Source: Candidatus Gottesmanbacteria bacterium RIFCSPLOWO2_01_FULL_42_22
GTDB taxonomy: Bacteria; Patescibacteriota; Microgenomatia; 2-02-FULL-39-11
DNA length: 64,000 nucleotides
Assembly (NCBI GenBank): GCA_001779315.1
Contig: MFJU01000042.1
Location: 747-64,746 of the forward strand
Reading direction: 5' to 3'
A model generated the notes under the pieces. The model did not search any database. It saw only the letters and a program-made list of their open reading frames with translations, and was not told where the DNA came from. Made by a program: the position numbers and the translations under genes. Below are positions 39,613-57,211 of this stretch, in pieces (within the stretch, counting starts at the first letter, position 1; each line of letters opens with the position of its first letter).

Positions 39613-40092
39613 ATGAAGAAATTAAGGATAGGCTGGTTTTCCTTTTCCTGCTGTGAAGATTCGACCATTATTTTTACTGAACTTTTAAATGAGCATTTTG
39701 CCCAATGGCGCAAGCTCCTCGATATTAGAGCCATGCTGGTTTTACAGAAAAAAGAAGATATGACTTCACTGGATGTCGCCTTTGTCGAAGGGGCGGTAAC
39801 CTCCCGTGACCAGTCGGATAAATTGAAATTGATCAGAAACAGAGCCAAAAAACTGGTAGCCATCGGATCATGCGCCTGTATCGGCATGCCCTCAGCTCAG
39901 AGAAACCTTTTTAATGCGGAAACTAAAGCCGAGATTGAGGCTATATTGACCCGCTTTAAGTATTCGGAAAAAGTGCTGAAATTATCGGAAGTTGTCCCAA
40001 TCGATGACCAGGTGCCCGGCTGTCCCATGAATGAGAAAATTTTTCTGAATATTCTGGATAAATATTTAAAGGAATTTAAAATAGATGCATAA
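39613..40092 (+). CDS. [NiFe]-hydrogenase small subunit-like (NuoB-fold, proximal-cluster-only)
   Basis: SCCEDS, GSCACIG and PGCP cysteine motifs like NuoB/hydrogenase small subunits; 159 aa. Confidence 0.55.
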   Translation: MKKLRIGWFSFSCCEDSTIIFTELLNEHFAQWRKLLDIRAMLVLQKKEDMTSLDVAFVEGAVTSRDQSDKLKLIRNRAKKLVAIGSCACIGMPSAQRNLFNAETKAEIEAILTRFKYSEKVLKLSEVVPIDDQVPGCPMNEKIFLNILDKYLKEFKIDA

Positions 40093-41374
40093 TCTTGATT
40101 TGTCACTCTCCGATATCTCAAAGATTGAAGGCAAAGCCAGTTGTGATATCAAAATCCGCCATGGCAAAGTCGAGGACGTAAAATTTTCAATTAGCGAATT
40201 TAAACGTTTTTATACCCGGGCCATCAAAGGGAAGGACATAGTAGCGCTTCCCCAGCTGACCTGCCGGATCTGCGGTACCTGCTCCAATGCCCATTTGCTG
40301 TGTGCAATCAAAGCCTGCGAAAAAATTTTAGATATTCATGTTTCCGAGCAAACTGTGAAACTGCGGCGGCTTCTCAATTTCGGGCTTTTAATAAGAGACC
40401 ACGCTTTGCATTTATATATTTTTGTCATGCCGGATTTTTTCGGCCATGATTCGATTTTGGAATTTAAGGAAGATGACAGCCTGGAGCATAAATTTCTGCA
40501 CGATGCTTTCCAGGTAAAGGCGGTCGGCAATCATCTGAGCATTGCCGTTGGCGGCAGAAGTGTACACGCGCCTTATGCGGTGGTTGGCGGTTTCACCAGG
40601 TTACCAAACGGGGAAGAATTGAAAAAATGCAGCGATGAGCTGTCGGGTTTGAGAAACACGGTCATTGATCTGATCAAACTTTTTAAAGAAAAAGATAAAA
40701 CTTTAATTAGGCCCGATCTTCAATTTGCCGCGCTTTTGGATAGCGAATATTCATTTTTAGACGGAGAGATTTACCACTCAAAGGGCCGGGAAAGGGCTGG
40801 AAAATACGGGGATAATCTGGAATATGTTTCCATTCCTTATTCCCACGCTTCCGGCTTCAGGTTTAAAGGAAAAACCTATATGACAGGTGCTTTGGCCCGG
40901 CTGAATTTAGGCAAAGACAAGCTCCACCCCAAAACCCGCCAAAGCCTGAATTCAATTTTGGACCTCTTTCCCTCAAATAATATCTACCATAATAATTTGG
41001 CCCAAGCCATAGAGATTCTTCATTGTCTTGATTCGGCGGCTGATATTATTAAAAATTTTGTTATCAAAGAGGAGAAACCGCTACCCATAAACAGAAAGGC
41101 CGGGACAGGCGCGGGCGTCATCGAAGCACCGCGGGGTATTCTTTATTACCGTTTGTCAGTTGATGGTGGGGGAAAGGTTATAAAGGGTGAAATTGTCGTA
41201 CCAACCGGCCAAAATCAGATAGGCATAGAAGAATCAATCAGGCTTTACCTGGAAAACAATTTAACGAAATTTAAAGAAAAAGAAGATTTGGAAAAAGAAA
41301 TTGAATCAATTGTCCGCGCTTACGACCCCTGCATGAGCTGCGCTTCGCACTTTCTCAAAACCCGCTACAGCTGA
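40085..41374 (+). CDS. [NiFe]-hydrogenase large subunit
   Basis: N-terminal RICGTCSNAH (RxCGxCxxxH) and C-terminal DPCMSCASH (DPCxxCxxH) Ni-Fe ligating motifs. Confidence 0.75.
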   Translation: MHNLDLSLSDISKIEGKASCDIKIRHGKVEDVKFSISEFKRFYTRAIKGKDIVALPQLTCRICGTCSNAHLLCAIKACEKILDIHVSEQTVKLRRLLNFGLLIRDHALHLYIFVMPDFFGHDSILEFKEDDSLEHKFLHDAFQVKAVGNHLSIAVGGRSVHAPYAVVGGFTRLPNGEELKKCSDELSGLRNTVIDLIKLFKEKDKTLIRPDLQFAALLDSEYSFLDGEIYHSKGRERAGKYGDNLEYVSIPYSHASGFRFKGKTYMTGALARLNLGKDKLHPKTRQSLNSILDLFPSNNIYHNNLAQAIEILHCLDSAADIIKNFVIKEEKPLPINRKAGTGAGVIEAPRGILYYRLSVDGGGKVIKGEIVVPTGQNQIGIEESIRLYLENNLTKFKEKEDLEKEIESIVRAYDPCMSCASHFLKTRYS

Positions 41375-41742
41375 TTTTCCAGAATTTTACATATATAGGC
41401 CACCGCTTTTTTTTTAGATGTACGGACCGGCACTCCGATGATGAGAAAATCGTCCAGCTGTTTTAATTTTTTCCTCAAAGATAAATCCAGATAAAGGTCA
41501 TAATCATGAACAGATATTAAGGGAGAGGCGGCAAAAGCAGACAGAGAGTTAAAAACCGTGATTTTTTTAATCCCGAGAACCGTATCGATAAAAATCAATT
41601 TGCCTTTTGGGGAATTAAGTTCTTCCGCCGGATCGTATTTTTGAAAATTTAAATCAGGTAGTTTTTTCTTTAAAAGAGGCATGATTTCAGACGGAAGAGA
41701 GTCTTTTTTATCGGCCTCATTTCCCAGACAGAAGATAATCAT
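41365..41742 (-). CDS. putative hydrogenase maturation protease (HycI/HoxW-like)
   Basis: 125 aa; N-terminal IIFCLGNE and internal LIFIDTV resemble the endopeptidase family; context next to the large subunit. Confidence 0.4.
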   Translation of the reverse strand: MIIFCLGNEADKKDSLPSEIMPLLKKKLPDLNFQKYDPAEELNSPKGKLIFIDTVLGIKKITVFNSLSAFAASPLISVHDYDLYLDLSLRKKLKQLDDFLIIGVPVRTSKKKAVAYICKILENQL

Positions 41743-42494
41743 GTGTTTATCACATTCAAGGAATAGCGGGTATAATATTTCAGATCATTCAATTGCCTGA
41801 GTGAAAGTTTTTGGCAAAAATATCCCCAGTGGCAGGAAATATAATCTCCCTTTTTTAGATTATTCCTGAGAATGTCATCTTTGCCCTGGAAGATTACGGA
41901 TCTGATTATTTTTTTCTTGAAGCACATCTTTCCCTTACAAAATTCCAGTTTTTGGGATTCGATTTTAATCGATTGATTTCCGTCAAAACCCAGTATTTTC
42001 CCCCAATTAATTAGACAGGCATCCATTGTTTCCAGAGTGTGGGGAATATCAAGATGGCCGGTCCTGCGCCAGACAGCTAAGACGTGGAAGGAATGGTGGG
42101 GTAGGGGAATTTGCGGAAAAAAATTAAAAATACGTTTCAGCTGCCGAGGTTTCATTTTTTTCAGCATAAGCTTATCTTTTAAAAGATCAGCGAAATTGCG
42201 GGTTTTGACTTTTTCCAATAAGGCATTACCCAGCCAGTAGGCTTCAATAACCTGCCGGTCAAGCGGATTGCGGATATTGTTTTGATAGGCAATCAGGCAA
42301 AGATAAGGATAAAGGGTGGAAAAATTCTGCAGAATTTCCCCTGTACCTTTGTCAATGAGGGCAGTGGCAGAGTAATATGACAGCTCTTCATGTCTATCAG
42401 GCCCGCACAAAGAAAGGGAGTTCGGCGGATAAGCATAACGGCTGCAAAGAAAGACCCCGTCAGCGGTTAAGACTCGGTTGGTGGCGGAAAACAT
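41739..42494 (-). CDS. hypothetical protein
   Basis: 251-aa ORF, Cys-containing C-terminus; no family recognised. Confidence 0.3.
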   Translation of the reverse strand: MFSATNRVLTADGVFLCSRYAYPPNSLSLCGPDRHEELSYYSATALIDKGTGEILQNFSTLYPYLCLIAYQNNIRNPLDRQVIEAYWLGNALLEKVKTRNFADLLKDKLMLKKMKPRQLKRIFNFFPQIPLPHHSFHVLAVWRRTGHLDIPHTLETMDACLINWGKILGFDGNQSIKIESQKLEFCKGKMCFKKKIIRSVIFQGKDDILRNNLKKGDYISCHWGYFCQKLSLRQLNDLKYYTRYSLNVINT

Positions 42495-44028: not shown

Positions 44029-44648
44029 ACTTAACAGGGGAAAGCAAATTTTTTATCGGAATTATTCTTGCGACAGTTGCCATAATTATCGGCGGCGTCT
44101 TTTTCATGTCCAAACCGGAAAAGCTTTTGGAAAAAAGCGAGTTAATCCCTGCCGGCAGCCAAATTAAAGGAAATTCAGAAGCCTCAGATTATCTGGTCGA
44201 GTTTTCAGATTTCCAGTGTCCGGCCTGCGGTGCTTTTTATCCCCAGGTAAAATCTTTAGTTAATGCCAATAAGGATAAATTATCCTTAAGTTACCGGCAT
44301 TTCCCTCTTGATCAGCACAAAATGGCCGTCCCTGCCGCCCTGGCAGCCGAAGCGGCCGCCGAACAGGGCAAGTTTTGGGAAATGCATGACTATATTTTCG
44401 AAAACCAGGCCGGACTTTCCGAGGAAATGCTTCTTTCAGCCGGCGAAAAACTGGGCCTGGACAAAGCCAAATACGAGGAGGCTTACAAAAATAAAAAGTA
44501 TCAGGAAAAAGTTTCCAAGGACCTGGCCGACGGTAAGCGTTTCAGCGTCAATGCCACCCCGACCTTTTTCCTGAACGGCAAAAAACTGAATCCGGTCAAC
44601 TTTGACGACCTCAAACGCTCTGTCGAAGAGGAATTGAAGAAGAATTAA
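44025..44648 (+). CDS. DsbA-like thioredoxin-fold oxidoreductase
   Basis: FSDFQCPACGAFYP CxxC motif; N-terminal TM; translationally coupled to VKOR. Confidence 0.65.
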   Translation: MNLTGESKFFIGIILATVAIIIGGVFFMSKPEKLLEKSELIPAGSQIKGNSEASDYLVEFSDFQCPACGAFYPQVKSLVNANKDKLSLSYRHFPLDQHKMAVPAALAAEAAAEQGKFWEMHDYIFENQAGLSEEMLLSAGEKLGLDKAKYEEAYKNKKYQEKVSKDLADGKRFSVNATPTFFLNGKKLNPVNFDDLKRSVEEELKKN

Positions 44649-44650
44649 CT

Positions 44651-47434
44651 CTAATTTTTCTTTTTAATGGCTTTAATGACCAGCATCTCGGGGTAATTTT
44701 TATCCGGATGCATTCGCAATGACGGGTCTTGACCTTCTTGAAACCGGGCAAGGATAAAACTATCTGTGAAGTACTGTGATAAATATTCCCCCAATGTGTG
44801 CTGAGGTTCAGGTATTGTCAATTTTTCACCTAGCTTAGTATTTACTTTACGCCTGCCAAAATAGTCATGAGGGTTATCGCTGAAAGCCATTTGGCTCATT
44901 GGATGATGAGCAAAAAATATCAAAGTTCCATCAGGCTTCAAACATCTAATAATTTCCCGAAAGATGGTATCGATATTTTCATTTTCATTAATGACATATT
45001 TACTGATTATTATGTCAAAGGTTTCGTCATCAAATGGCAATATAGACACATCGTTTTCCCGGAAACGATCAGCTAATTCCGGATATTTTTCTATTGTCTG
45101 GCTAATCATTTTCGAAGATCCATCTATCCCATATACATCAGCTCCATTATTATTCAGAAGATGCACTTCATTACCAGATCCGCAACCGTCATCTAATACT
45201 TTTTTACCGTTAAGTTCGGTTCCTAGCCATTCCAATAAGATTTCCTGTTCAATCGAACCGACTTCCTTCAATAAAGCATCCATTTGTTGAGTGTATATAT
45301 CGGCAGTTTCAGCATCATAACCGCCGACAGATTTTTCACCCGATATATATTTTTGTACTAAAGCATCAGGCAAATTTCTGTCACCCAGCTGATACCAAAG
45401 AAAATTGAATAATTCTTCTTCCATTTCCGGCATACCGATAATAATTTCATCCGGGGGAGGATTTAATCCTTGGACTAAACTATCGCTTGAAAGAATATTT
45501 ATTGAGCCGATAGAGGAAGCAGAAGGAATACCACAGAAAATCCTTGCTAATTGAAAATGCCTGATATATAAGGCAGTGGCCGGGTCGGGTTCCCTGAGAG
45601 TGTATAAGGTATAGCCGGCCATTTTCTGATTAGCAGTATCAACGTACAACTCGTAAAGAGCAATTTTAGCAGCACGCTCATCGAATCTCTTTATAAAATG
45701 CTTATTTACTCTGTCATGAGCATAAGATGATTTTGCTCCGGCTTTCACTAAAAAGGCAGCTGATGCTTCTTCTCGATTAAGGACGGCAAAGGCAGCCAGC
45801 CCTTTGCATAGTTTCATATAATAAATATCTGATTGACTACTCTCTTTTGCCGGCCGGAAATCCCGGCTTGCGGAAATATCGGGTAACAAATCAATCAGCC
45901 TTGTCCAATACCCAATATCAGATTCAGATGATTGCCTTTTATATCTACTCTCTTCAGGTAAAGAAGCATCAACTGCCCGGCAGAATGCTTCCTTTCCGTC
46001 TGATGACTGCCTATAAAAAGACAACAGTAAATTTTCAAAATTTTGATAATCCTGAATGCCTTTTAAGGCAGGAAAGACATCCTTTAAACCTATTGCCACC
46101 ATGAATTTCCATAAATTGTGCGGGTTTTTCTCAACTGCTTTGGTTAATTGAAGTATAAAATTACCTAAATCTTTCCAGGTATTTTGATCTCTCCATAAAC
46201 TTTCGTATAAAAGAAATTCAATCGGTGAATATATATTAAATACAGATGTGTTAATGTATTTTTCGTTTCCGTACGCCTTGTCCAAAATATGAAATTGGTA
46301 TTCAATATCTCCTCGAGTTTCTTCTGATAATACAGACAGTTCAGGTTCCTCTGGAATTTCATACGTTGCCTCTTCAGGTAATTTTCCTTCTTTTTCAACT
46401 GCTAAGTTTGCCAGTTCTGCGGATAAGTTCAAAAGTTTTAAATAGTAAATTGGCCTATAATATCTGAACATTTCTTCTCTTTTTATAAAATCGGTTGTAT
46501 ATGGAATATGACGTTCTAGCATCCTCCCTGATACGCTATAAATGGAAATCGGTGAATTTAATATTTTGATGGTATCCTCGGATATATGACCATATGATTC
46601 TGCTTCGCCAAAAATCCAGTTTACTCTAGCCCGCGGACTTAAGGCAGGATTATGACAGGAATGATAATAATCTGAAAACATTAAATCCTCCGTAGCTTCG
46701 CCGACAAGGTCTTTTAATTTAATGGTGAATAGAGTTCTTAATTTTGAATATTCCTGAACTGCTCCAGTTTCTGTATCCGTTTCAACTGCAATCCTTAATT
46801 CAATACGATCTGAATCAGTTATAGATGCGGTTTTCTCCAAAATTAAAATTGGCGAAATCTTTTTCGATTCGGAGCTCATGCTAAGCGGTTTCACACTTAA
46901 CAAGTTTTCATCTCCGGCTAATCTATATAAAACCGCGGCAGGATTTAATCCGTATTTTTCCGGCTCAAGCTGGCTGGCGGCAAAACGCTTCTCCAGGCTT
47001 TCCTGGATTGCTTCTTTTGTATGTGTAAGATTATTAAAATGGTTATGCCCGTTTTTATATCCTATATAGAAGGTTAAAGGGGATCCCTGTAATAATTTCA
47101 TTTGCAGATTAAATGCCTGACTTTGAGGATCAGCAGCAAATAAATTGATCCTGTTTGCATTTTCACCTGATGAAACGGATTGCTTTCTAATAAAGGGAAG
47201 AATATTTGAAGCAGACAAATAATAAGTCACGTCTGCGCTGGAAAGCAGTTCATTGCATAAGTGAAGTAATTTATTCATTTCATCCTTTTGGACAGGTGAA
47301 CCGTCAGGGAAAAATGAATCAACCAGTTGAGTCAGGGTAAGATCGAATCCGTCCCGAATCTCAAGTTCTTGGGAAATTCCGGTTTTCAAATTTAATTGTT
47401 CAAGCGCAACTGCCATAGATTTAGCCGAAAACAA
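44651..47434 (-). CDS. large protein with ~680-aa N-terminal region of unknown function and C-terminal class I SAM-dependent methyltransferase
   Basis: VLDDGCGSGNEVHLL (motif I), VYGIDGS, Methyltransf_11-like; no DNA-MTase NPPY motif. Confidence 0.6.
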   Translation of the reverse strand: MFSAKSMAVALEQLNLKTGISQELEIRDGFDLTLTQLVDSFFPDGSPVQKDEMNKLLHLCNELLSSADVTYYLSASNILPFIRKQSVSSGENANRINLFAADPQSQAFNLQMKLLQGSPLTFYIGYKNGHNHFNNLTHTKEAIQESLEKRFAASQLEPEKYGLNPAAVLYRLAGDENLLSVKPLSMSSESKKISPILILEKTASITDSDRIELRIAVETDTETGAVQEYSKLRTLFTIKLKDLVGEATEDLMFSDYYHSCHNPALSPRARVNWIFGEAESYGHISEDTIKILNSPISIYSVSGRMLERHIPYTTDFIKREEMFRYYRPIYYLKLLNLSAELANLAVEKEGKLPEEATYEIPEEPELSVLSEETRGDIEYQFHILDKAYGNEKYINTSVFNIYSPIEFLLYESLWRDQNTWKDLGNFILQLTKAVEKNPHNLWKFMVAIGLKDVFPALKGIQDYQNFENLLLSFYRQSSDGKEAFCRAVDASLPEESRYKRQSSESDIGYWTRLIDLLPDISASRDFRPAKESSQSDIYYMKLCKGLAAFAVLNREEASAAFLVKAGAKSSYAHDRVNKHFIKRFDERAAKIALYELYVDTANQKMAGYTLYTLREPDPATALYIRHFQLARIFCGIPSASSIGSINILSSDSLVQGLNPPPDEIIIGMPEMEEELFNFLWYQLGDRNLPDALVQKYISGEKSVGGYDAETADIYTQQMDALLKEVGSIEQEILLEWLGTELNGKKVLDDGCGSGNEVHLLNNNGADVYGIDGSSKMISQTIEKYPELADRFRENDVSILPFDDETFDIIISKYVINENENIDTIFREIIRCLKPDGTLIFFAHHPMSQMAFSDNPHDYFGRRKVNTKLGEKLTIPEPQHTLGEYLSQYFTDSFILARFQEGQDPSLRMHPDKNYPEMLVIKAIKKKN

Positions 47435-48755
47435 AGCCTTTCTTTTTTACGGTTTTCAATAAGTTTTCATCGATTCCGACAGCATTTAGTTTTTTCCTCA
47501 CCCGGTGGGCAAGAACATCTATCGCCCAATCGGAATATTTTTCCTCCCAACAGTCACCCCAAATAGTTTGGGCGATCACTTCACGGGATATGATTTTCTT
47601 TTTGGAATTAAGGAGAAGAAGCATCAGTAATTTTTCTTTATTGGTCAGTGTGTTAGTCAGATTATTTTTTCCGAGCATGATTTGGTCATGCTTGACGTGA
47701 ATAATATCCAGCTTCATTTCCTTTTCAATGATCTTTGAAAGAAGGGGCAGTCCGAGTTCAATACGATCCGATTTTTCTATAATGACCCTAATACTTTTTA
47801 AATATTCATATTCATGAGTCAGAGAATCGGTCTGTTCAATATTGCCCAGATATATCTTTCTGATGATATTTTTTTCTTCAGCTGTAAATTTGCCCCAAAT
47901 TACTTCCAGTTTGTTCAAAAGCAAAATATCCGTGCAGGCTTCATATACTGATAGTTGGAAATCATCCCTCAGGTTTCTGATGGCCTGATGGACAAGCCAG
48001 TGGTATCCGCCGCATATCCGATAAATTTCTTTGGCTGTTTTTTCCGGCAAAGTAACATTCCAGAGGTCACAGTAGAAATTGATAAATTGCAGCACATCCG
48101 GTTCATCGTACAAAGGGTATTTAATGATGTGATCAAAGAGGAATGAACACTTATCGGCTAAAACTTTATATTTATCATCGGTAATATCCAGTTCTGAAAA
48201 AACGATGACAGACAGATTTTTACTGGTCTGGACAAGCAGTTCCAAATCGATTAAAGGCTGATAATTTTTATAATTCAAGACCGGAACAATATGGGCTAAG
48301 AATAAACCGACTTCATAACCGCTTCCGGCAATCAAGTTCAATAACTCAATATTTGATAAGCTATTTAATGATTTTTTGTGACCAATCTTTCTTGAAAGAT
48401 AAAGTTCAACTAATGATTCATTGATCGTTTTGAGGAGATCCTTTTGGTCGATGGGGATGTATTTTAAGAGGTATTTTCGGTAATATGGACCAAAGTATTT
48501 TCTTAAGAGGTGCTTATTGTTAATTACCTCTGTCACACTGTATTCGCAGTCGTCCTGTAGTTGGATAATTGTTCCCGATTCAGTATAACGGATAATATTC
48601 AGCCACTTCTTAGCATTCGCCTCGATTGTTTTAACCGTTAAATCAGTTAAACACTTATTTGGATCTTTATAGCCGGCAGTCGAAAAAATACTCCACCACT
48701 GCCTGGCATTCTCCGATCCAATGTTAGTCTGTTTCTTTTGAGCGGTTCTATTCAT
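47421..48755 (-). CDS. protein with C-terminal OmpR/PhoB-type winged-helix DNA-binding domain, no receiver
   Basis: C-terminal EVIAQTIWGDCWEEKYSDWAIDVLAHRVRKKL...KTVKKKGFVF; N-terminal 350 aa unrecognised; 14-nt overlap with the downstream MTase gene. Confidence 0.5.
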   Translation of the reverse strand: MNRTAQKKQTNIGSENARQWWSIFSTAGYKDPNKCLTDLTVKTIEANAKKWLNIIRYTESGTIIQLQDDCEYSVTEVINNKHLLRKYFGPYYRKYLLKYIPIDQKDLLKTINESLVELYLSRKIGHKKSLNSLSNIELLNLIAGSGYEVGLFLAHIVPVLNYKNYQPLIDLELLVQTSKNLSVIVFSELDITDDKYKVLADKCSFLFDHIIKYPLYDEPDVLQFINFYCDLWNVTLPEKTAKEIYRICGGYHWLVHQAIRNLRDDFQLSVYEACTDILLLNKLEVIWGKFTAEEKNIIRKIYLGNIEQTDSLTHEYEYLKSIRVIIEKSDRIELGLPLLSKIIEKEMKLDIIHVKHDQIMLGKNNLTNTLTNKEKLLMLLLLNSKKKIISREVIAQTIWGDCWEEKYSDWAIDVLAHRVRKKLNAVGIDENLLKTVKKKGFVFG

Positions 48756-49014
48756 TTTAGACGGTCATAACAACCCAAACGTAAAAATGTAAGGATTTTG
48801 GCGGATTATACCCTTTTTTGTAAGGAAGTCAAATTTTCCTGACAAATTATGACAAGCAAAATATAACCTCTTCCTATACTCTATGGGCTGAATTTCTTTC
48901 TTTACGGGGTGGACCCGAAAAAAAAGGACGAAGTTCAGCTCTTTGACAGGAAGGAACCAATCAAGCCAGGATGCGCCCTGACTTGAAAATCTAAGTTTCC
49001 AACGGAGGAAAAAA

Positions 49015-49842
49015 ATGAACACCAGTAAGCTTTACATCCTATTGATTGTGTTGGTCACTCTGACTTCGTGCGCTTCGCCAGGCTCAACCCAAGTACCCCC
49101 TGCTTCTGTAAAAGCAGAATATGAACAGGAGACCTTCGAGCTGGGAAGTTTCGGAATGGTGGCTGTCCAAGCAGGGATTCTTGAGGCCGGAAACTACTAC
49201 TTCGTGCCCAGTGCAACCGCAGTCAGCGGCGGCATCTCCGTTTACTCCCTGACCCAGGGAACCGTGATCGGATTCCTAATCGAGAGGTTGGTTGAGGTCG
49301 GCCCCGGAATAATTCAGGATATGGTAGAGGGTCCGAGAACCTTCTACTGGGACGGCCAGATAACAACCATCAACCGGGCAACCGGAGAAATTCGGGTTTA
49401 CGCCCTCGAAGATGCCGATACTGCCGAGGCCGAAAATGCTAAAACTGATGAGGAGGCTCAGGCGAAAGCCGGAGAGGAGGAAAAAGTGAGCCAATATCAG
49501 AGTGATCCGATTATCCATGTCGATGATGATCCGACGTGGATAAGAATTGGAGCAGAAATCATAGGACCTACAATGGTCTTTAACGATTGCGAGTCTTTAA
49601 TCTCAGCGTTACAGGCTAATCCTGCTTTACATGGCCGTGCCTATATTGTTGACAACGATTTGGGTCCAGGAAAAATGAAAGGTCCTCAATGCGTGCAGCA
49701 GATTTTGGCCTTAAGGCCAGGGTCGGTCATCATTGGCCTCTCGGGAGGTTTCAATGATCCGGGGTTTGTAAACTCAGGTGCGAAAACCTGGGTGAGCAAA
49801 ACTAAAGTTGACTTCAAAACTTTCCGAGATCTACTGCCGTAA
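49015..49842 (+). CDS. putative lipoprotein with C-terminal receiver-like (CheY-fold) domain
   Basis: Lipobox LTSC after a signal peptide; IIHVDDDP...YIVDNDL...IIGLSGG resembles a receiver; locally GC-richer. Confidence 0.4.
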   Translation: MNTSKLYILLIVLVTLTSCASPGSTQVPPASVKAEYEQETFELGSFGMVAVQAGILEAGNYYFVPSATAVSGGISVYSLTQGTVIGFLIERLVEVGPGIIQDMVEGPRTFYWDGQITTINRATGEIRVYALEDADTAEAENAKTDEEAQAKAGEEEKVSQYQSDPIIHVDDDPTWIRIGAEIIGPTMVFNDCESLISALQANPALHGRAYIVDNDLGPGKMKGPQCVQQILALRPGSVIIGLSGGFNDPGFVNSGAKTWVSKTKVDFKTFRDLLP

Positions 49843-49951: not shown

Positions 49952-50383
49952 TTAAAACTCATTGATACTTCTTAGATACTGAAGGAAATTTCCCGGTTTG
50001 ATTATTAAAATCCCCAAATCATTTTCGATTTTGTTTGCTTTGTAATGCCGGCTGTTATGGGACAGTAAGAATTTAGACTTTGATAGGTAAGCTCCGGCAA
50101 CCACATGTGAATCTTCTTCATCAATGACATAATCCCCATAATTTTTGATTAAATCTTTTTTGGTTATATCAAAAGCGATTGTTCTGAGATTGTTGAGGAT
50201 TTTTACGGTGCTCCCAGCTTCAATATTAAGTCTTTTTCCCACTTCTTTTACCTCTTCTGCAACGGTATTGGTAATTATTTTTTCAATTTTGGGAATTTTG
50301 ATGACGTTAAAGGAAGCGCCGGTTTTTGAAAGCAGGGAGGAGATAATGACATCAGTGTCTAAAAAGACCCGGATTTTTGCCAT
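49952..50383 (-). CDS. PIN-domain protein (toxin-like)
   Basis: IRVFLDTDVIISSL N-terminus. Confidence 0.6.
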   Translation of the reverse strand: MAKIRVFLDTDVIISSLLSKTGASFNVIKIPKIEKIITNTVAEEVKEVGKRLNIEAGSTVKILNNLRTIAFDITKKDLIKNYGDYVIDEEDSHVVAGAYLSKSKFLLSHNSRHYKANKIENDLGILIIKPGNFLQYLRSINEF

Positions 50384-50634
50384 AGCTTTTGACGGACATT
50401 TCTGATAGTTTCATTCACTTTTTCCAATCCAGCTTCATCCGTCTTCTGGGCTTTTAATATATCCTCATCCATCCCGGTGAAGACAAAGGAAATTGAACTT
50501 GCGGGAATTCGATACACCTTTCCGATTTTTTTGGCAATAATTTCTCCTCTGCCGATCAGCTCATAAATGGTGTTTTTGCTCAACTGGAGTATTTCTGCGA
50601 CTTGTTCCGGTGTGTACGTTCTTGGATGTAACAT
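50359..50634 (-). CDS. HTH (excisionase/MerR-like HTH_17) putative antitoxin
   Basis: YTPEQVAEILQLSKNTIYELIGRGEI; overlaps the PIN gene. Confidence 0.5.
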   Translation of the reverse strand: MLHPRTYTPEQVAEILQLSKNTIYELIGRGEIIAKKIGKVYRIPASSISFVFTGMDEDILKAQKTDEAGLEKVNETIRNVRQKLWQKSGSF

Positions 50635-50708: not shown

Positions 50709-51080
50709 TTGTTAAATTTCGAGGATTATAAGTCCCCAAAATATGCCGAATTTAAGGAGCCGGTGGTAAACAAAGCGTTTTTACAAGACCATTATTTAGG
50801 TCTTGACATAAGACCTATATATAGGTTAAACTATTGGTATATGATTTCAACATCTATTTCTCAACTTAAAGCAAACCCATCCGCTGTGATTGAACAAGCA
50901 GCCGATTATCCGGTAGCAGTCGAAAGCCGGAATGATGTCAAAGCCTATCTCATCGGTAAAAATCTTTTTGAAAAAATGATTGCATTTATTGAAAATTATG
51001 CAGATGCCGAAGCTGTTAAAAAGGCAGACTTCAAAAGCGGAAAAGACTTAGAAGAAGTAGCCAAAGAACTTGGGATATGA
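50709..51080 (+). CDS. Phd/YefM-type antitoxin
   Basis: ISQLKANPSAVIEQAADYPVAVESRNDVKAYLI; the true start may be the internal Met near 50844. Confidence 0.5.
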   Translation: MLNFEDYKSPKYAEFKEPVVNKAFLQDHYLGLDIRPIYRLNYWYMISTSISQLKANPSAVIEQAADYPVAVESRNDVKAYLIGKNLFEKMIAFIENYADAEAVKKADFKSGKDLEEVAKELGI

Positions 51081-51340
51081 AGATTGTTTTATCTCCTAGG
51101 ACGGAAAAACAGCTCAGAAATCTACCGAAATTTGACCAGATAGCTATAGCAGAGAAAATCCGCAATTTGCCTCAAAGTCAACAGTCAGGGGAAGAAAAAC
51201 TGTCCGGTTTCCCCGGCATCTACAGGGTAAGGGTAGGAAATTACCGAATTGTTTATAAAAAGCTGGCTGATTCTTTCTATATTGTTATAATTCGTCATCG
51301 ACGGGATGTCTACCGCTTAGTCAAAGATTTATTGGGCTAG
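51077..51340 (+). CDS. RelE/ParE-family toxin
   Basis: 87 aa; IYRVRVGNYRIVYKKLADSFYIVIIRHRRDVY; overlaps the antitoxin stop. Confidence 0.7.
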   Translation: MKIVLSPRTEKQLRNLPKFDQIAIAEKIRNLPQSQQSGEEKLSGFPGIYRVRVGNYRIVYKKLADSFYIVIIRHRRDVYRLVKDLLG

Positions 51341-52598
51341 CATACAGATCTTCCAGTTCCTTGACCCCGCCGAAGGCGATGCGGTCAAGAACAAGATCAT
51401 CCATGCCGAGCATTAAAGCAGGGGTAATGACAAATTCGCCGAAACGGTTATTGATTTTGTCGGCGGCATCGGTGACGTCCCTGTTTTTGCTTTTTTCTGT
51501 CCGGAAAAGCTCCTCCTGGACAAATTTTTTCTCGAAGAGTTTAAAACAGCTGACGGCCAGTTTAGCCACTTTTTTCGAAGGATGCGTTTGGTTGTTAAAG
51601 ACCAGCATGACCTTTTTGAACAGTTCTCCCGTGGTATACATTTCGGTCGCAAAAGTTTCCCCCCGGTGCCAATGGGTGTAGTCGGTATAGATAACGGCAA
51701 CATGGATGCCCAAAGCTGTATAACCGTGGCGGCGCAATCTTCGGCCCATTTTTTCCGTCAGTTTCATTAACAACCGGGCCAGCTCTCTTTTATCAGAGGT
51801 GAATTTGCCCAAGGCATAGGACTGTCCGAAGCTTTTGCGCTCAAACTCAATCGCATCAATCTCCCAGCCGCGCAATCTCAAATACCAGTAATGGCCGACA
51901 ATGCTCTGGAAAACCTCTTTGATAAGAAGTTCGCGTGAAGCTTTCAAAAAATCCAAAGGAGTAAAAATGTCCCGGGCGTTGAGTCTGGCCTGAAAGCGCG
52001 TATTGATGCCGCAAAGATCAATCAAAGTTACCCTGTCATAAACTTCCTCCAGGTTTTGCCAGTTGATCGTCTGAAGCCCGTCCGGCTTTTTTAAAGAAGC
52101 CGCCAGTTTGGCCAGAAAGCGGTTGGTGGAGATGCCGACTGAAACGCTAATCCACTCGCCGATTTCCCGTTTAATCCGTTTTTTTATTTCACTGCCGACA
52201 TCCTCAAGGCTTTTATTTTTTATTTGGCAGCCGCTAAAATCCAGGACTGCCTCGTCAATAGATTTGGGAAAAACGTCGGGTGAATATTCCTTGAAGATCC
52301 GGCTGAATTTCAAATGAACATCCCTGTATTTGGGAGGATCAGGCGGCCGCACGATTATTTGAGGACAAAGAAGTCGGGCTTCCCGCACCGTCATGCCGAC
52401 CCTAACCCCGTACCTTTTAGCTTCAATTGAGGGAGCGATGACACAGCCGTTGCCGGTGGTGTAGGCAGCTACAGCTACCGGTTTGCCGCGCAGCAGTGGA
52501 TTGGCCTGCTGTTCGGCGGTGGCAAAACAGGAGTTCATGTCAATATGCATGACCAGGGGCAAGTTGCGGTTAAGAGGCAAGTCCATCGCTGACCTCAT
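51321..52598 (-). CDS. Y-family DNA polymerase (DinB/UmuC-like)
   Basis: MHIDMNSCFATAEQQANPLLRGKPVAV N-terminal catalytic motif. Start placed at Met 52598 or 52586; the track's 52724 start overlaps the upstream ORF. Confidence 0.8.
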   Translation of the reverse strand: MRSAMDLPLNRNLPLVMHIDMNSCFATAEQQANPLLRGKPVAVAAYTTGNGCVIAPSIEAKRYGVRVGMTVREARLLCPQIIVRPPDPPKYRDVHLKFSRIFKEYSPDVFPKSIDEAVLDFSGCQIKNKSLEDVGSEIKKRIKREIGEWISVSVGISTNRFLAKLAASLKKPDGLQTINWQNLEEVYDRVTLIDLCGINTRFQARLNARDIFTPLDFLKASRELLIKEVFQSIVGHYWYLRLRGWEIDAIEFERKSFGQSYALGKFTSDKRELARLLMKLTEKMGRRLRRHGYTALGIHVAVIYTDYTHWHRGETFATEMYTTGELFKKVMLVFNNQTHPSKKVAKLAVSCFKLFEKKFVQEELFRTEKSKNRDVTDAADKINNRFGEFVITPALMLGMDDLVLDRIAFGGVKELEDLYASPINL

Positions 52599-52842
52599 CA
52601 AGTCTCCAAAAAAGAGTTTCCGTATCCAGTTCAAGCCGGAAAGCCAGCGAATTGTTGGAGACTGAGAAAATATGGAGAAGTTTTTTGCCCTGTTTGACTT
52701 TGTGGTGGTAGCCGATCTTGTCAATTATGTAGATGCGGCCCTGCCATTTGATTTTTTGGGGCATGACCGTCCTTTTTTCCCGGTCAAAAACCGTCACCAC
52801 GCTGATTTTTTCGTTGATTTTTTCGTTCATAAAATCGCTCAA
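52570..52842 (-). CDS. small protein between lexA and the Y-family polymerase (possible polymerase accessory, YolD-like?)
   Basis: 90-aa ORF in operon position; no confident family. Confidence 0.3.
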   Translation of the reverse strand: MSDFMNEKINEKISVVTVFDREKRTVMPQKIKWQGRIYIIDKIGYHHKVKQGKKLLHIFSVSNNSLAFRLELDTETLFWRLDEVSDGLAS

Positions 52843-52860
52843 AATGACACGTAACTCTTT

Positions 52861-53433
52861 TCAGTGATATTTCCGGATGACCGAGATGACAATGCCGAAA
52901 ATGATGAGATTTTCTTTCGGATACAGGGGTTTGTATTTGCTGTTGCCTGCTGAGAGAAAAACGAGATTATCTTTTTTGCGGAAATACTTGAGAGTGAATT
53001 CATCATCAATTGCCGCCACCACGATATCGCCCTCTTTAGGTTGGCGGCCCTTTTCCACAATCACCATATCGCCTTCGTGGATGCCGGCCTCAATCATCGA
53101 ATCCCCTGAAACCCTAAGAAGATATGATCTTTCGGGGCGGGCAATCAGATAGTCATCAAAGGAAACGGCAGACAGAAGCTGCTCTTCGGCGGCTGTCGGA
53201 CTGCCGGCGCGGATAATACCTAAAACAGGCAGGGAGGGAAAAAGCTGTTTCGGCATAAGTTTGCCGGTAGAGTCCTTCCCCAATATGCCGGCTTCGATGA
53301 GTTTGGCCGCCAATTTAAAACTGGCTCCCTTGGAAGAGAAACCGAAAAGACGGCACATTTCCTGATAAGAGGGGAGACGCTTGTTTTTGCGGAAAAAGCG
53401 GCGGATTTTCTGTACAGCAGACTCAAGATTCAT
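52861..53433 (-). CDS. lexA: LexA repressor
   Basis: N-terminal wHTH; S24 peptidase motifs VSGDSM and GDIVVAAIDDEFTLK; perfect GAAC-N4-GTTC box upstream. Confidence 0.8.
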   Translation of the reverse strand: MNLESAVQKIRRFFRKNKRLPSYQEMCRLFGFSSKGASFKLAAKLIEAGILGKDSTGKLMPKQLFPSLPVLGIIRAGSPTAAEEQLLSAVSFDDYLIARPERSYLLRVSGDSMIEAGIHEGDMVIVEKGRQPKEGDIVVAAIDDEFTLKYFRKKDNLVFLSAGNSKYKPLYPKENLIIFGIVISVIRKYH

Positions 53434-55577: not shown

Positions 55578-55675
55578 AATTAATCACCCCCCTTCGCCCC
55601 GATTTAATCGGGGCAAATCCTTCTATTTCCAGGCTACTATGGATTTGAGCTTGTTGTCAAGATGAATTAGCAATT

Positions 55676-56359
55676 TTATCCGGCTGACTGACGGTAGAGC
55701 ATAAAAAGCAGAAAGGAAAAAAGCAGGACAAAGACACCCAGAAGGAGGTAAACCCGGTTTAAACCCATGACCTTTTTTTCCGGTTCTTTCGGTTTGTGTG
55801 CTTCCTCTGCCAAACCGGCGATCATAGTCTGCTCTTTGAGGTAATCAGTTTTGGCCAATAAAAAACCGACGGACGGTGCATCTAAAGTCGTAAGATTCAT
55901 GCCGGTTACAGAAGACGGAATGACTGTAAAAACGGTAAAACCGCGATTTTTGAAAGTTTCCATAAATACCTGCAGAAAATCAATATTGGCGGCCGATAGC
56001 AAAAACCCTTTTTCCAGTTTGTAAATCTTATGAACATTATTTTCGAAAGGCAGATGATAAAGGAAATCTTCGATGATATTTTTCTGAAGATCCTCTTTCT
56101 CTTCGCTGAAATTTTTTTCAAAGGTAATCTGGGGGGATAAAATAAAGATGAGCCTGGCCGGAGGCAGTTTGTGGTAATTGATAAAAAGCTTCAATTGCAT
56201 TTCCAGCTCTTTACTGTTGACAATTTCCATAAACCTAACCAGTTTGTCCGGGTAATTATAGACGGCTATTTGGTTGTTTACCGAGTTAAAATAAACGAGT
56301 TTGTCTCTGTCCAAAAAAACAACGGCTAAATTTTGAAGGCTTTTCATATCAGGGAACAT
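55676..56359 (-). CDS. hypothetical pilus-associated protein with C-terminal TM anchor
   Basis: Position in the pilus operon; one TM helix. Confidence 0.3.
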   Translation of the reverse strand: MFPDMKSLQNLAVVFLDRDKLVYFNSVNNQIAVYNYPDKLVRFMEIVNSKELEMQLKLFINYHKLPPARLIFILSPQITFEKNFSEEKEDLQKNIIEDFLYHLPFENNVHKIYKLEKGFLLSAANIDFLQVFMETFKNRGFTVFTVIPSSVTGMNLTTLDAPSVGFLLAKTDYLKEQTMIAGLAEEAHKPKEPEKKVMGLNRVYLLLGVFVLLFSFLLFMLYRQSAG

Positions 56360-56729: not shown

Positions 56730-57211
56730 CTTAAAGATGCGGTTAAAGCGTAATTTGCAGTTCTCGCCTCTCCCGCTTCCAAAATCAGACTTTGCAATTC
56801 AAATTCTATTTTGACAGCCGGTTTTCCCGTAATATTGCCGATTCTTCTGACTGTAAAACTGTTTAAAGCCGTACCATAGCCGTTTAATTTTCCGCTGACA
56901 ATACCATTATTATAGAAAAGATTGGATCCTGAAAGGAAAAAATCGTGTGTCTGGCCTGCCTGTTCGAGAGAAATATCGGATGCGACATCTCCGGGATTAG
57001 CCGGAACTTGGATATTATCGGCCTGATATATTTCATTGGTCAGTTTTTTAATAATAAACATGGCGTCCTGGGAGCTTAAAGAGGTGGAAGCCGATTCTTT
57101 TTGCAGATCAAGAACTGAGGCGATCAGCTGAGCGACAATAATCAGAAAGGAAAAAAGCAGAAAACCATAGAGAATTGTTTCGATTAAGGTTGAGCCTTTA
57201 TTGAATTTCAT
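56726..57211 (-). CDS. minor pilin/pseudopilin
   Basis: STLIETILYGFLLFSFLII prepilin-like N-terminus. Confidence 0.5.
   Translation of the reverse strand: MKFNKGSTLIETILYGFLLFSFLIIVAQLIASVLDLQKESASTSLSSQDAMFIIKKLTNEIYQADNIQVPANPGDVASDISLEQAGQTHDFFLSGSNLFYNNGIVSGKLNGYGTALNSFTVRRIGNITGKPAVKIEFELQSLILEAGEARTANYALTASLR

Follow-up and report, generated by a model that had tools for sequence, protein, structure and literature searches.

A putatively autoregulated two-gene cassette in Microgenomates-group bacteria pairs a pseudo-STAND/winged-helix regulator with a modular deaminase/methyltransferase partner

The genomes of the candidate phyla radiation (CPR), or Patescibacteria, are small and hold many unannotated genes, and little is known about how transcription is regulated in these bacteria. 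Here, we describe a two-gene locus in a stretch of 64,000 nucleotides (nt) from Candidatus Gottesmanbacteria bacterium RIFCSPLOWO2_01_FULL_42_22 (contig MFJU01000042.1), which is referred to in its whole length as the window. The described systems that come closest to the first gene are the STAND regulators (MalT and AfsR/SARP-LAL), a family of archaeal Walker-type ATPases, and the OmpR/PhoB response regulators, while the second gene recalls the deaminases TadA/ADAT2 and their inactive relatives ADAT3/Tad3, and the pair as a whole recalls type II toxin-antitoxin (TA) systems. The deaminase fold has been surveyed by Iyer et al. (2011, PMC3239186), where the CDA-fold family takes in deaminases of free bases and of antibiotics (blasticidin S deaminase, for example), where deaminases, like STAND modules, recur in immune and toxin systems, and where an RNA-binding role is proposed for deaminase domains that have lost activity. 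The same work describes a fusion of Tad3 to a SET methyltransferase and a deaminase, Bd3614, that adjoins an rRNA methylase gene.

Gene 1 of the locus (47421..48755, minus strand) encodes a protein of 444 amino acids (aa), and gene 2, directly downstream (44651..47416, minus strand), encodes a protein of 921 aa counted from an ATG, or 927 aa from a TTG at 47434; residue numbers for gene 2 follow the 927-aa open reading frame (ORF). Both ORFs (47421..48755 and 44651..47434, minus strand) are present in the ORF list of the window as the initial annotation of this DNA had them, and both genes are annotated as hypothetical in a GenBank Gottesmanbacteria metagenome-assembled genome (MAG), in which the gene 1 product (P0002) bears the name "hypothetical protein." On balance, we favor reading the pair as an autoregulated bicistronic cassette of Microgenomates-group CPR bacteria, in which a regulator made of a degenerate ("pseudo-") STAND module and an OmpR-type winged helix-turn-helix (wHTH) is joined to a coupled modular enzyme with an exchangeable deaminase/methyltransferase module.

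Comparison across genomes indicates that gene 1 and gene 2 are a real conserved pair and functionally linked. In a search starting from the wHTH protein, a same-strand partner of the gene 2 family was found in 8 of 12 non-redundant close relatives, and all seven loci reached from the partner side have a wHTH-family gene directly upstream, most of them with a junction of the form TAA-N4-ATG. A scan of one genome per species gave 52 genome loci of the gene 1 family; at most of these the next gene after the wHTH gene lies on the same strand, at a distance of −14 to +11 nt, and the gene upstream of the wHTH gene is mostly on the opposite strand. In the subfamilies nearest to the window the wHTH partner belongs to the deaminase/methyltransferase family, and distant subfamilies have other partners, mostly without a Pfam match, with single matches to HAD (hydrolase), PMT_2, and AAA_16. 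The junction in the window, GGCTAAatctATGGCAG (47414..47423, minus strand), consists of the gene 1 TAA (47421-47423), a 4-nt spacer, and the gene 2 ATG (47414-47416), and the same layout is found at loci L001 and L060-L063. This conserved arrangement makes the ATG at 47416 the most likely start of gene 2 and suggests that translation of gene 2 is coupled to that of gene 1. A 14-nt overlap had been reported at first; this is an artifact of taking the longest ORF, from the TTG at 47434, since the relatives and the Joint Genome Institute (JGI) gene call for gene 2 (P0074, 921 aa) use the ATG that follows the gene 1 stop after 4 nt. The initial view of the pair as uncommon and linked gains support, with linkage conserved from both search directions and a coupled junction.

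The OmpR/PhoB-type winged helix reported at the C terminus of the gene 1 protein is confirmed by the sole Pfam match of this protein, Trans_reg_C (aa 369 to 443), within a wHTH that spans aa 352 to 443 (47427..47702, minus strand) and is preceded by a small winged-helix-like element (aa 325 to 349, 47709-47783). The remaining ~340 residues had no match in Pfam, NCBIfam, or PDB sequences. However, an AlphaFold2 model built from a 40-sequence input is confident (predicted local distance difference test [pLDDT], 86.4) and places a STAND/AAA+ NTPase fold at aa ~40 to 320 (47796..48638, minus strand), with a P-loop-type, nucleotide-binding-like alpha/beta core and a helical lid that, together with the winged helix, are the elements of a NOD module. 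A canonical Walker A motif (GxxxxGK[ST]) was not found in the protein, and its position (aa 59 to 72, nt 48540-48581, minus strand) is taken by a conserved ESGTIIQLQDDCEY, the family having ESGT[IV]IQLQDD there. Walker B (hhhhD[DE]) is also lacking, as the beta-3 strand in question reads GLFLAHIV (aa 150 to 157; consensus GLFISHI) and has no acidic residues. Because both motifs are degenerate, the gene 1 protein probably does not hydrolyze ATP. Walker A is absent from the window's subfamily, and a canonical P-loop is kept only in distant members (GLPGSGKST in L036, GIPGIGKSL in L031, and PAGSGKRT in P0070). A CheY-like receiver domain, with its phospho-acceptor Asp, is also absent from the N terminus of this protein, and we found neither sensor repeats (TPR, WD40, or LRR) at the C terminus, where the wHTH ends at aa 443, nor the SARP/AfsR layout, the wHTH being C-terminal and a BTAD match being absent. 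The earlier statement that gene 1 has no receiver or ATPase motif is therefore right as to the motifs, but it overlooks the NTPase fold that the model predicts, and we conclude that the protein is a pseudo-STAND regulator, which is more than an orphan wHTH protein.

A word-index search recovered ~70 full-length relatives of the gene 1 protein, of ~415 aa, the named ones being from Patescibacteria, and almost all of the 52 loci come from Microgenomates-group lineages (Gottesman-, Roizman-, Levy-, Woese-, Shapiro-, Davies-, and Dojkabacteria). The cassette is also carried by third-party annotation (TPA) MAGs labeled "uncultured Gammaproteobacteria/Pseudomonadales" (L007, L012, L016, L020, L032, L043, L044, L052-L054, and L056), and these labels are probably taxonomic misassignments. 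We observe tandem or closely spaced pseudo-STAND/wHTH paralogues within single loci (L046:6287-8812, L030:3136-7723, and L022:1604-6445), and the MAG GW2011_GWA2_43_14 has copies on two contigs (L006 and L010), which together point to a lineage-specific expansion of this gene.

With respect to gene 2, the C-terminal class I S-adenosylmethionine (SAM)-dependent methyltransferase of the initial annotation is upheld (aa ~708 to 927, 44654..45313, minus strand). The Pfam matches of the protein are to class I methyltransferase families alone (aa ~733 to 845), and the domain has a Rossmann-like fold, motif I (VLDDGCGSG, aa 746 to 754), and an acidic residue after beta-2 (D771). The SAM-binding residues are invariant across the seven methyltransferase-bearing members of the family, and all seven conserve, with little or no variation, two motifs particular to the family, KYV(L/I)NE and HHPxSQ, so that the methyltransferase is predicted to be active. 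The traits of DNA methyltransferases, i.e., (D/N/S)PP(Y/F) or a C5 PC motif along with the corresponding family hidden Markov model (HMM), were not found in the gene 2 protein. It has no N6_N4_Mtase or DNA_methylase match, its best matches being of the UbiE/BioC/Methyltransf_11 type, and a marginal N6_N4_Mtase match (E value, 0.0025) appeared in 1 of 26 relatives.

The N-terminal ~680 aa of gene 2 had been called unrecognized, and indeed aa 1 to 720 had no match in Pfam, NCBIfam, or PDB sequences. This description still fits two family-specific domains, neither of which had a Pfam match in any of 26 family members: an alpha/beta N-domain (aa ~28 to 350, 46385..47353, minus strand), which is present only in some members, and an all-helical middle domain (aa ~371 to 535, 45830..46324, minus strand), which is common to all partner types and has conserved YSPxE(Y/F)LxYExLW and LLPD motifs. 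It does not fit aa ~536 to 700 (45335..45829, minus strand), which have the deaminase fold of the CDA/TadA superfamily. By alignment, this TadA-fold domain is catalytically dead, since it is left without any zinc ligand or catalytic Glu: the HAE of relatives aligns with R587-A588-A589 in the window, with loss of a zinc ligand and the catalytic Glu, and their PCxxC aligns with P616-D617-P618-A619-T620. The relative at L001 has QAI at the HAE position. Within the N-domain, marginal ubiquitin-like matches (E ≥ 0.1) were seen around profile positions 85 to 118. In addition, the segment at 46739-46882 (aa 185 to 232) gives a weak second match to positions 74 to 123 of the partner-family profile, the segment ahead of the middle domain, which hints at a possible internal duplication. 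Considering both genes, neither protein matches a well-known family over its full length.

Word-index searches with the N-terminal 720 aa of gene 2 and with the partner alignment returned almost no homologues, and an exhaustive HMMER search with aa 1 to 720 against 1.84 billion cluster representatives gave 28 relatives. Four architectures are found in the family: N-domain, middle domain, and live deaminase (630 to 664 aa); middle domain and live deaminase (350 to 475 aa); N-domain and/or middle domain with methyltransferase (551 to 812 aa); and N-domain, middle domain, degenerate deaminase, and methyltransferase, as in the window, P0076, and P0100, with P0076 being 54% identical to the window over the 720-aa query. 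In a Pfam scan, 19 of 26 members had dCMP_cyt_deam_1/MafB19 and the other 7 a methyltransferase, the two never occurring together. The window protein is homologous over aa ~380 to 685 to the partners in L003-L008 (E values of 1e-11 to 1e-17), which have dCMP_cyt_deam_1/MafB19 domains, and the live-deaminase relatives are nearest to TadA by sequence (E value, 3e-14). The methyltransferase fills the catalytic slot that a deaminase takes in most relatives.

We observe that deaminase and methyltransferase modules swap at loci with common flanking genes. L003, with a deaminase partner, and L061, with a methyltransferase partner, have a common flanking block of Aminotran_5, 2-Hacid_dh, and ParB_N genes, relative to which the cassette has opposite orientations in the two loci. 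At L062, the flanking genes are those of the window (LexA, Y-family polymerase, DsbA, VKOR, and EamA), and the partner is a 551-aa protein with a middle domain and a methyltransferase that aligns to the window partner over the methyltransferase alone (47%). The neighbors of the cassette are 53 to 67% identical between the window and L062, compared with 70% for the regulator, which at a stable locus argues for strong purifying selection on the regulator. Domains are gained, lost, and replaced as the partner evolves, while the regulator stays conserved.

Upstream of gene 1 lies a promoter that matches the sigma-70 consensus at 11 of 12 positions, the best site in 44300-49300, with a −35 hexamer TTGACT (48827..48832, minus strand), a 16-nt spacer, and a −10 hexamer TATAAT (48805..48810, minus strand). 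Three operator-like half-sites of the form TCCT(G/T)ACA (TCCTKACA) surround it, all given on the minus strand. Half-site 1, TGTCAGGA on the gene strand and TCCTGACA on the plus strand (48837..48844), is found just upstream of −35 and is inverted relative to the other two; half-site 2, TCCTTACA (48819..48826), abuts −35 within the spacer; and half-site 3, again TCCTTACA (48788..48795), follows −10 at ~10 nt. Three of the five copies in the window thus fall within 57 nt (48788-48844). The 8-mer is not enriched window-wide (5 copies versus 3.2 expected), and a wider regulon within the window is not supported.

The position and orientation of half-site 1 are kept in L003, L006-L014, L061, and L062. 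In the 130 nt upstream of gene 1 in each of 14 related operons (1,820 nt), CTGACA/TGTCAG occurs 19 times versus 0.9 expected on the basis of the remainder of these loci (Poisson P ≈ 3e-19). The related operons have a common layout, with an inverted copy before −35, one copy after −35, and one after −10. Members of the window's clade (window, L061, and L062) have CTTACA at the homologous positions, which suggests that operator and regulator may have covaried. By their placement around the promoter and their conservation across related operons, the half-sites suggest autoregulation by the gene 1 protein.

In the reading that we favor, the gene 1 protein would bind the TCCT(G/T)ACA half-sites that bracket −35 and follow −10 of its own promoter, and it would gate, most simply repress, transcription of both genes, with the NOD-like module acting as a ligand- or partner-responsive switch, as in MalT and AfsR. 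Gene 2 encodes a scaffold, made of the N-domain and the helical middle domain, with a catalytic module at its C terminus that can be exchanged. In most members this module is a zinc-dependent TadA-like deaminase; in the window lineage the zinc ligands and the catalytic Glu of that deaminase are all lost, and a class I SAM methyltransferase has been added. The dead deaminase may have been kept as a nucleobase- or nucleic-acid-binding module, with the methyltransferase acting on the same class of substrate. From the domain displacement and the retention of the dead deaminase fold, we infer as the most likely substrate of the methyltransferase a nucleobase in (tRNA-like) RNA or another nucleic acid, or a nucleotide. 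The description first given to the locus, a regulatory and/or modification system, seems fair to us.

Several points weigh against this reading. Binding of the gene 1 protein at the half-sites is deduced from their position and conservation, and, while OmpR-family domains usually bind direct repeats, sites 1 and 2 are inverted. The methyltransferase is of a generic small-molecule (UbiE/Methyltransf_11) type, the closest structures offer no hint of its substrate, and a profile search of PDB sequences for the fold of the N-domain and middle domain returned only ubiquitin, at E ≥ 0.1. Furthermore, distant paralogues sit next to unrelated genes, so that the family may consist of general transcription factors and not of a dedicated two-component system. 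Four close relatives (L009, L011, L013, and L014) lack a codirectional partner, and in its place a gene in convergent orientation overlaps the 3′ end of the wHTH gene, so that the regulator is able to occur without this partner. At L009:2248-4761, L011:8198-10729, and L013:8181-10670 (−) this convergent gene encodes a protein of ~830 aa and overlaps by 14 to 24 nt; these proteins, from a Roizmanbacteria-type subclade, are 52 to 56% identical to one another, have no Pfam match, and are unrelated to the partner.

Among the other explanations, we consider it possible, if unlikely, that the cassette is a TA-like or anti-phage conflict system, in which an autorepressing pseudo-STAND/wHTH antitoxin or sensor restrains a base-modifying effector (deaminase or methyltransferase) until a trigger lets the effector modify host or invader nucleic acids. 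The gene order is TA-like, in that a DNA-binding protein is encoded first and a coupled enzyme second and that the operator sites lie over the promoter, and two type II TA pairs are encoded 1.2 to 2.6 kb away. Swapping of deaminase and methyltransferase, gain and loss of the N-domain at loci with common flanks, inversion of the cassette against the same flanking block (L003 versus L061), and the presence of several paralogous cassettes per genome, including tandem copies, are all consistent with a conflict system, as is the fact that immune and toxin systems repeatedly use STAND modules and deaminases (Iyer et al. 2011, PMC3239186). However, the co-occurrence with defense islands that had been raised for this locus was not found. 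PADLOC gave a single match for the gene pair, mad2, limited to the generic methyltransferase core (aa 733 to 844), and for ten neighbors only mad1, a 43-aa generic HTH in a PIN-associated antitoxin 3 kb away; membership in MADS (mad1-mad8) was rejected, as the other mad genes are absent. Neither window protein had a PADLOC match to RADAR, dCTP deaminase, or AvcID, no relatives were found on IMG/VR viral contigs, and a PHROGs search for a phage origin gave generic matches only. A conflict system is also at odds with a chromosomal locus whose neighbors are kept and whose regulator is at least as conserved as those neighbors, unlike a fast-evolving immune sensor, with the loss of the NTPase motifs that known STAND immune proteins need, and with the four close relatives that have no codirectional partner. 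In addition, to our knowledge a class I methyltransferase of small-molecule type has not been known as a toxin effector.

It is distinctly unlikely, in our view, that gene 1 is simply a lineage-expanded Microgenomates transcription factor and gene 2 its adjacent target, a metabolic, salvage, or detoxification enzyme (a nucleobase or nucleoside deaminase or a small-molecule methyltransferase) that the regulator turns on when a small ligand occupies its degenerate nucleotide pocket. The pairing of distant paralogues with HAD, PMT_2 glycosyltransferase, and AAA_16 genes, the close relatives without a partner, the strong conservation of the regulator, the stable synteny, and the absence of defense signatures would all fit such an arrangement, and so would a methyltransferase that resembles small-molecule methyltransferases and a CDA-fold family that includes free-base and antibiotic deaminases, blasticidin S deaminase among them (PMC3239186). 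Yet ~500 aa of conserved family-specific scaffold would be unusual for a simple metabolic enzyme, and a deaminase could not stand in for a methyltransferase as a step of one metabolic pathway, although the two swap at loci with common flanks. The live deaminases are nearest to TadA/ADAT2, which edit tRNA, rather than to deaminases of free bases or nucleotides, and the retention of the dead deaminase argues that it has a role in binding a shared macromolecular substrate. Chance adjacency without a functional link, for which one could cite that PADLOC and Pfam assign no joint system, is hardly credible given a two-sided linkage across proteins that are 25 to 70% identical, the TAA-N4-ATG junction, and an upstream gene that is usually on the opposite strand.

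The locus defines a sizable lineage-specific family of regulators, with a P-loop-less STAND-like fold and a C-terminal OmpR wHTH, for which there is a testable candidate operator. It is also a clear case of domain displacement, in which a methyltransferase replaces a TadA-like deaminase on a common scaffold and the dead deaminase is kept, pointing to a shared nucleobase or nucleic-acid substrate. A much bolder version of the reading that we prefer is that the CPR have a new class of self-regulated nucleic-acid base-modification system, in which a pseudo-STAND sensor independent of nucleotide hydrolysis, with its own DNA-binding domain, controls, and possibly docks, a scaffold with interchangeable base-modifying "warheads." Such a system could work in immunity or addiction, or as a programmable switch that edits RNA or DNA, and the family would then be a source of new TadA-like deaminases with built-in targeting domains; as a whole, this version strikes us as unlikely. 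Should an editing, immune, or addiction module prove true, it would be a new type of system, with new TadA-like enzymes bearing accessory domains that would be of interest for base-editor discovery. Even if the locus is only a transcription factor with its target enzyme, two GenBank hypothetical proteins gain a structural annotation.

The genes that surround the cassette are mostly housekeeping genes, apart from the two TA pairs. Pfam matches in these neighbors are to PIN_3/HTH_17 and Phd/ParE (type II TA pairs), LexA, IMS polymerase, DsbA, VKOR, and DUF6390. The TA pairs are found 1.2 to 2.6 kb upstream of the cassette (49952-50634 and 50709-51340); one pairs a PIN_3 toxin with an HTH_17 antitoxin, and in the other a ParE toxin goes with a Phd/YefM antitoxin. 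The window and the syntenic L062 differ in this stretch, which therefore resembles a zone of variable insertion. At 51321-53433, a LexA-like Peptidase_S24 repressor, a 90-aa ORF, and a Y-family (IMS) polymerase make up an SOS-mutagenesis-type cassette, which is conserved beside the wHTH locus in L002 and L062. Between the TA pairs and gene 1, a divergent gene (49015-49842) encodes a 275-aa protein whose hydrophobic N terminus is lipoprotein-like (…LVTLTSCASPG…) and which also contains a low-complexity stretch rich in acidic residues; neither Pfam nor PADLOC gives a match to this protein, which is conserved in L002. On the other side of the cassette are genes for the small and large subunits of a NiFe-hydrogenase (39613-42494; Oxidored_q6 and NiFeSe_Hases), after which come, on the opposite strand, an ORF of 125 aa and a gene for a DUF6390 protein.

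The window is 100% identical to the deposited sequence LCDD01000003.1 of a Candidatus Gottesmanbacteria MAG (GCA_000998355.1), with the exception of four blocks of ~100 to 140 nt (48181-48303, 50987-51124, 55583-55699, and 56915-57012) that are absent from the latter and probably reflect assembly artifacts or population variants of the deposited MAG. The first block leaves a 123-nt in-frame gap inside the deposited wHTH gene, which is why P0002 has 403 aa rather than 444 aa. As all other family members have this segment, the window copy is the intact version of gene 1.

Compared with known systems, gene 1 differs from the STAND regulators MalT and AfsR/SARP-LAL in its degenerate Walker A and B motifs, in having no sensor repeats (TPR, WD40, or LRR) or BTAD domain, and in the size of the family protein, which is only ~415 to 444 aa; the wHTH of AfsR/SARP is N-terminal, whereas that of gene 1 is C-terminal, and MalT has an LuxR-type HTH. 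The archaeal Walker-type ATPases with a C-terminal winged helix (PDB 2qen, PAB2304; PDB 2fna, SSO1545) differ from gene 1 in that the P-loop is lost in the latter, that there is no Pfam match to their family at the sequence level, that the C terminus of gene 1 is specifically of OmpR/PhoB type (Trans_reg_C), and that the gene 1 family is found in CPR bacteria and theirs in archaea. Unlike OmpR/PhoB response regulators, gene 1 has a STAND-like module at the N terminus and no receiver domain or phospho-acceptor Asp. In contrast to TadA/ADAT2 and the inactive ADAT3/Tad3, the gene 2 family embeds the deaminase domain in a protein of 630 to 927 aa with two family-specific domains, gene 2 is encoded beside a STAND-like regulator, and no active deaminase subunit is evident as a partner; the fused methyltransferase is of the class I Rossmann fold, while that of the Tad3 fusion is SET. 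With type II TA systems whose antitoxins bind DNA, such as AbiEi/AbiEii, the locus shares its two-gene operon, in which a DNA-binding protein comes first and a coupled enzyme second, and operator sites that overlap the promoter, but gene 1 is far larger and STAND-like, the chromosomal neighbors are kept, and no TA or PADLOC system model is matched. In the literature, we found no account of the gene pair, nor of any pseudo-STAND protein that has an OmpR-type wHTH at its C terminus. All of the folds are known ones; what is new is their combination, the conserved cassette, the architecture of a dead deaminase with a methyltransferase, and the candidate operator.

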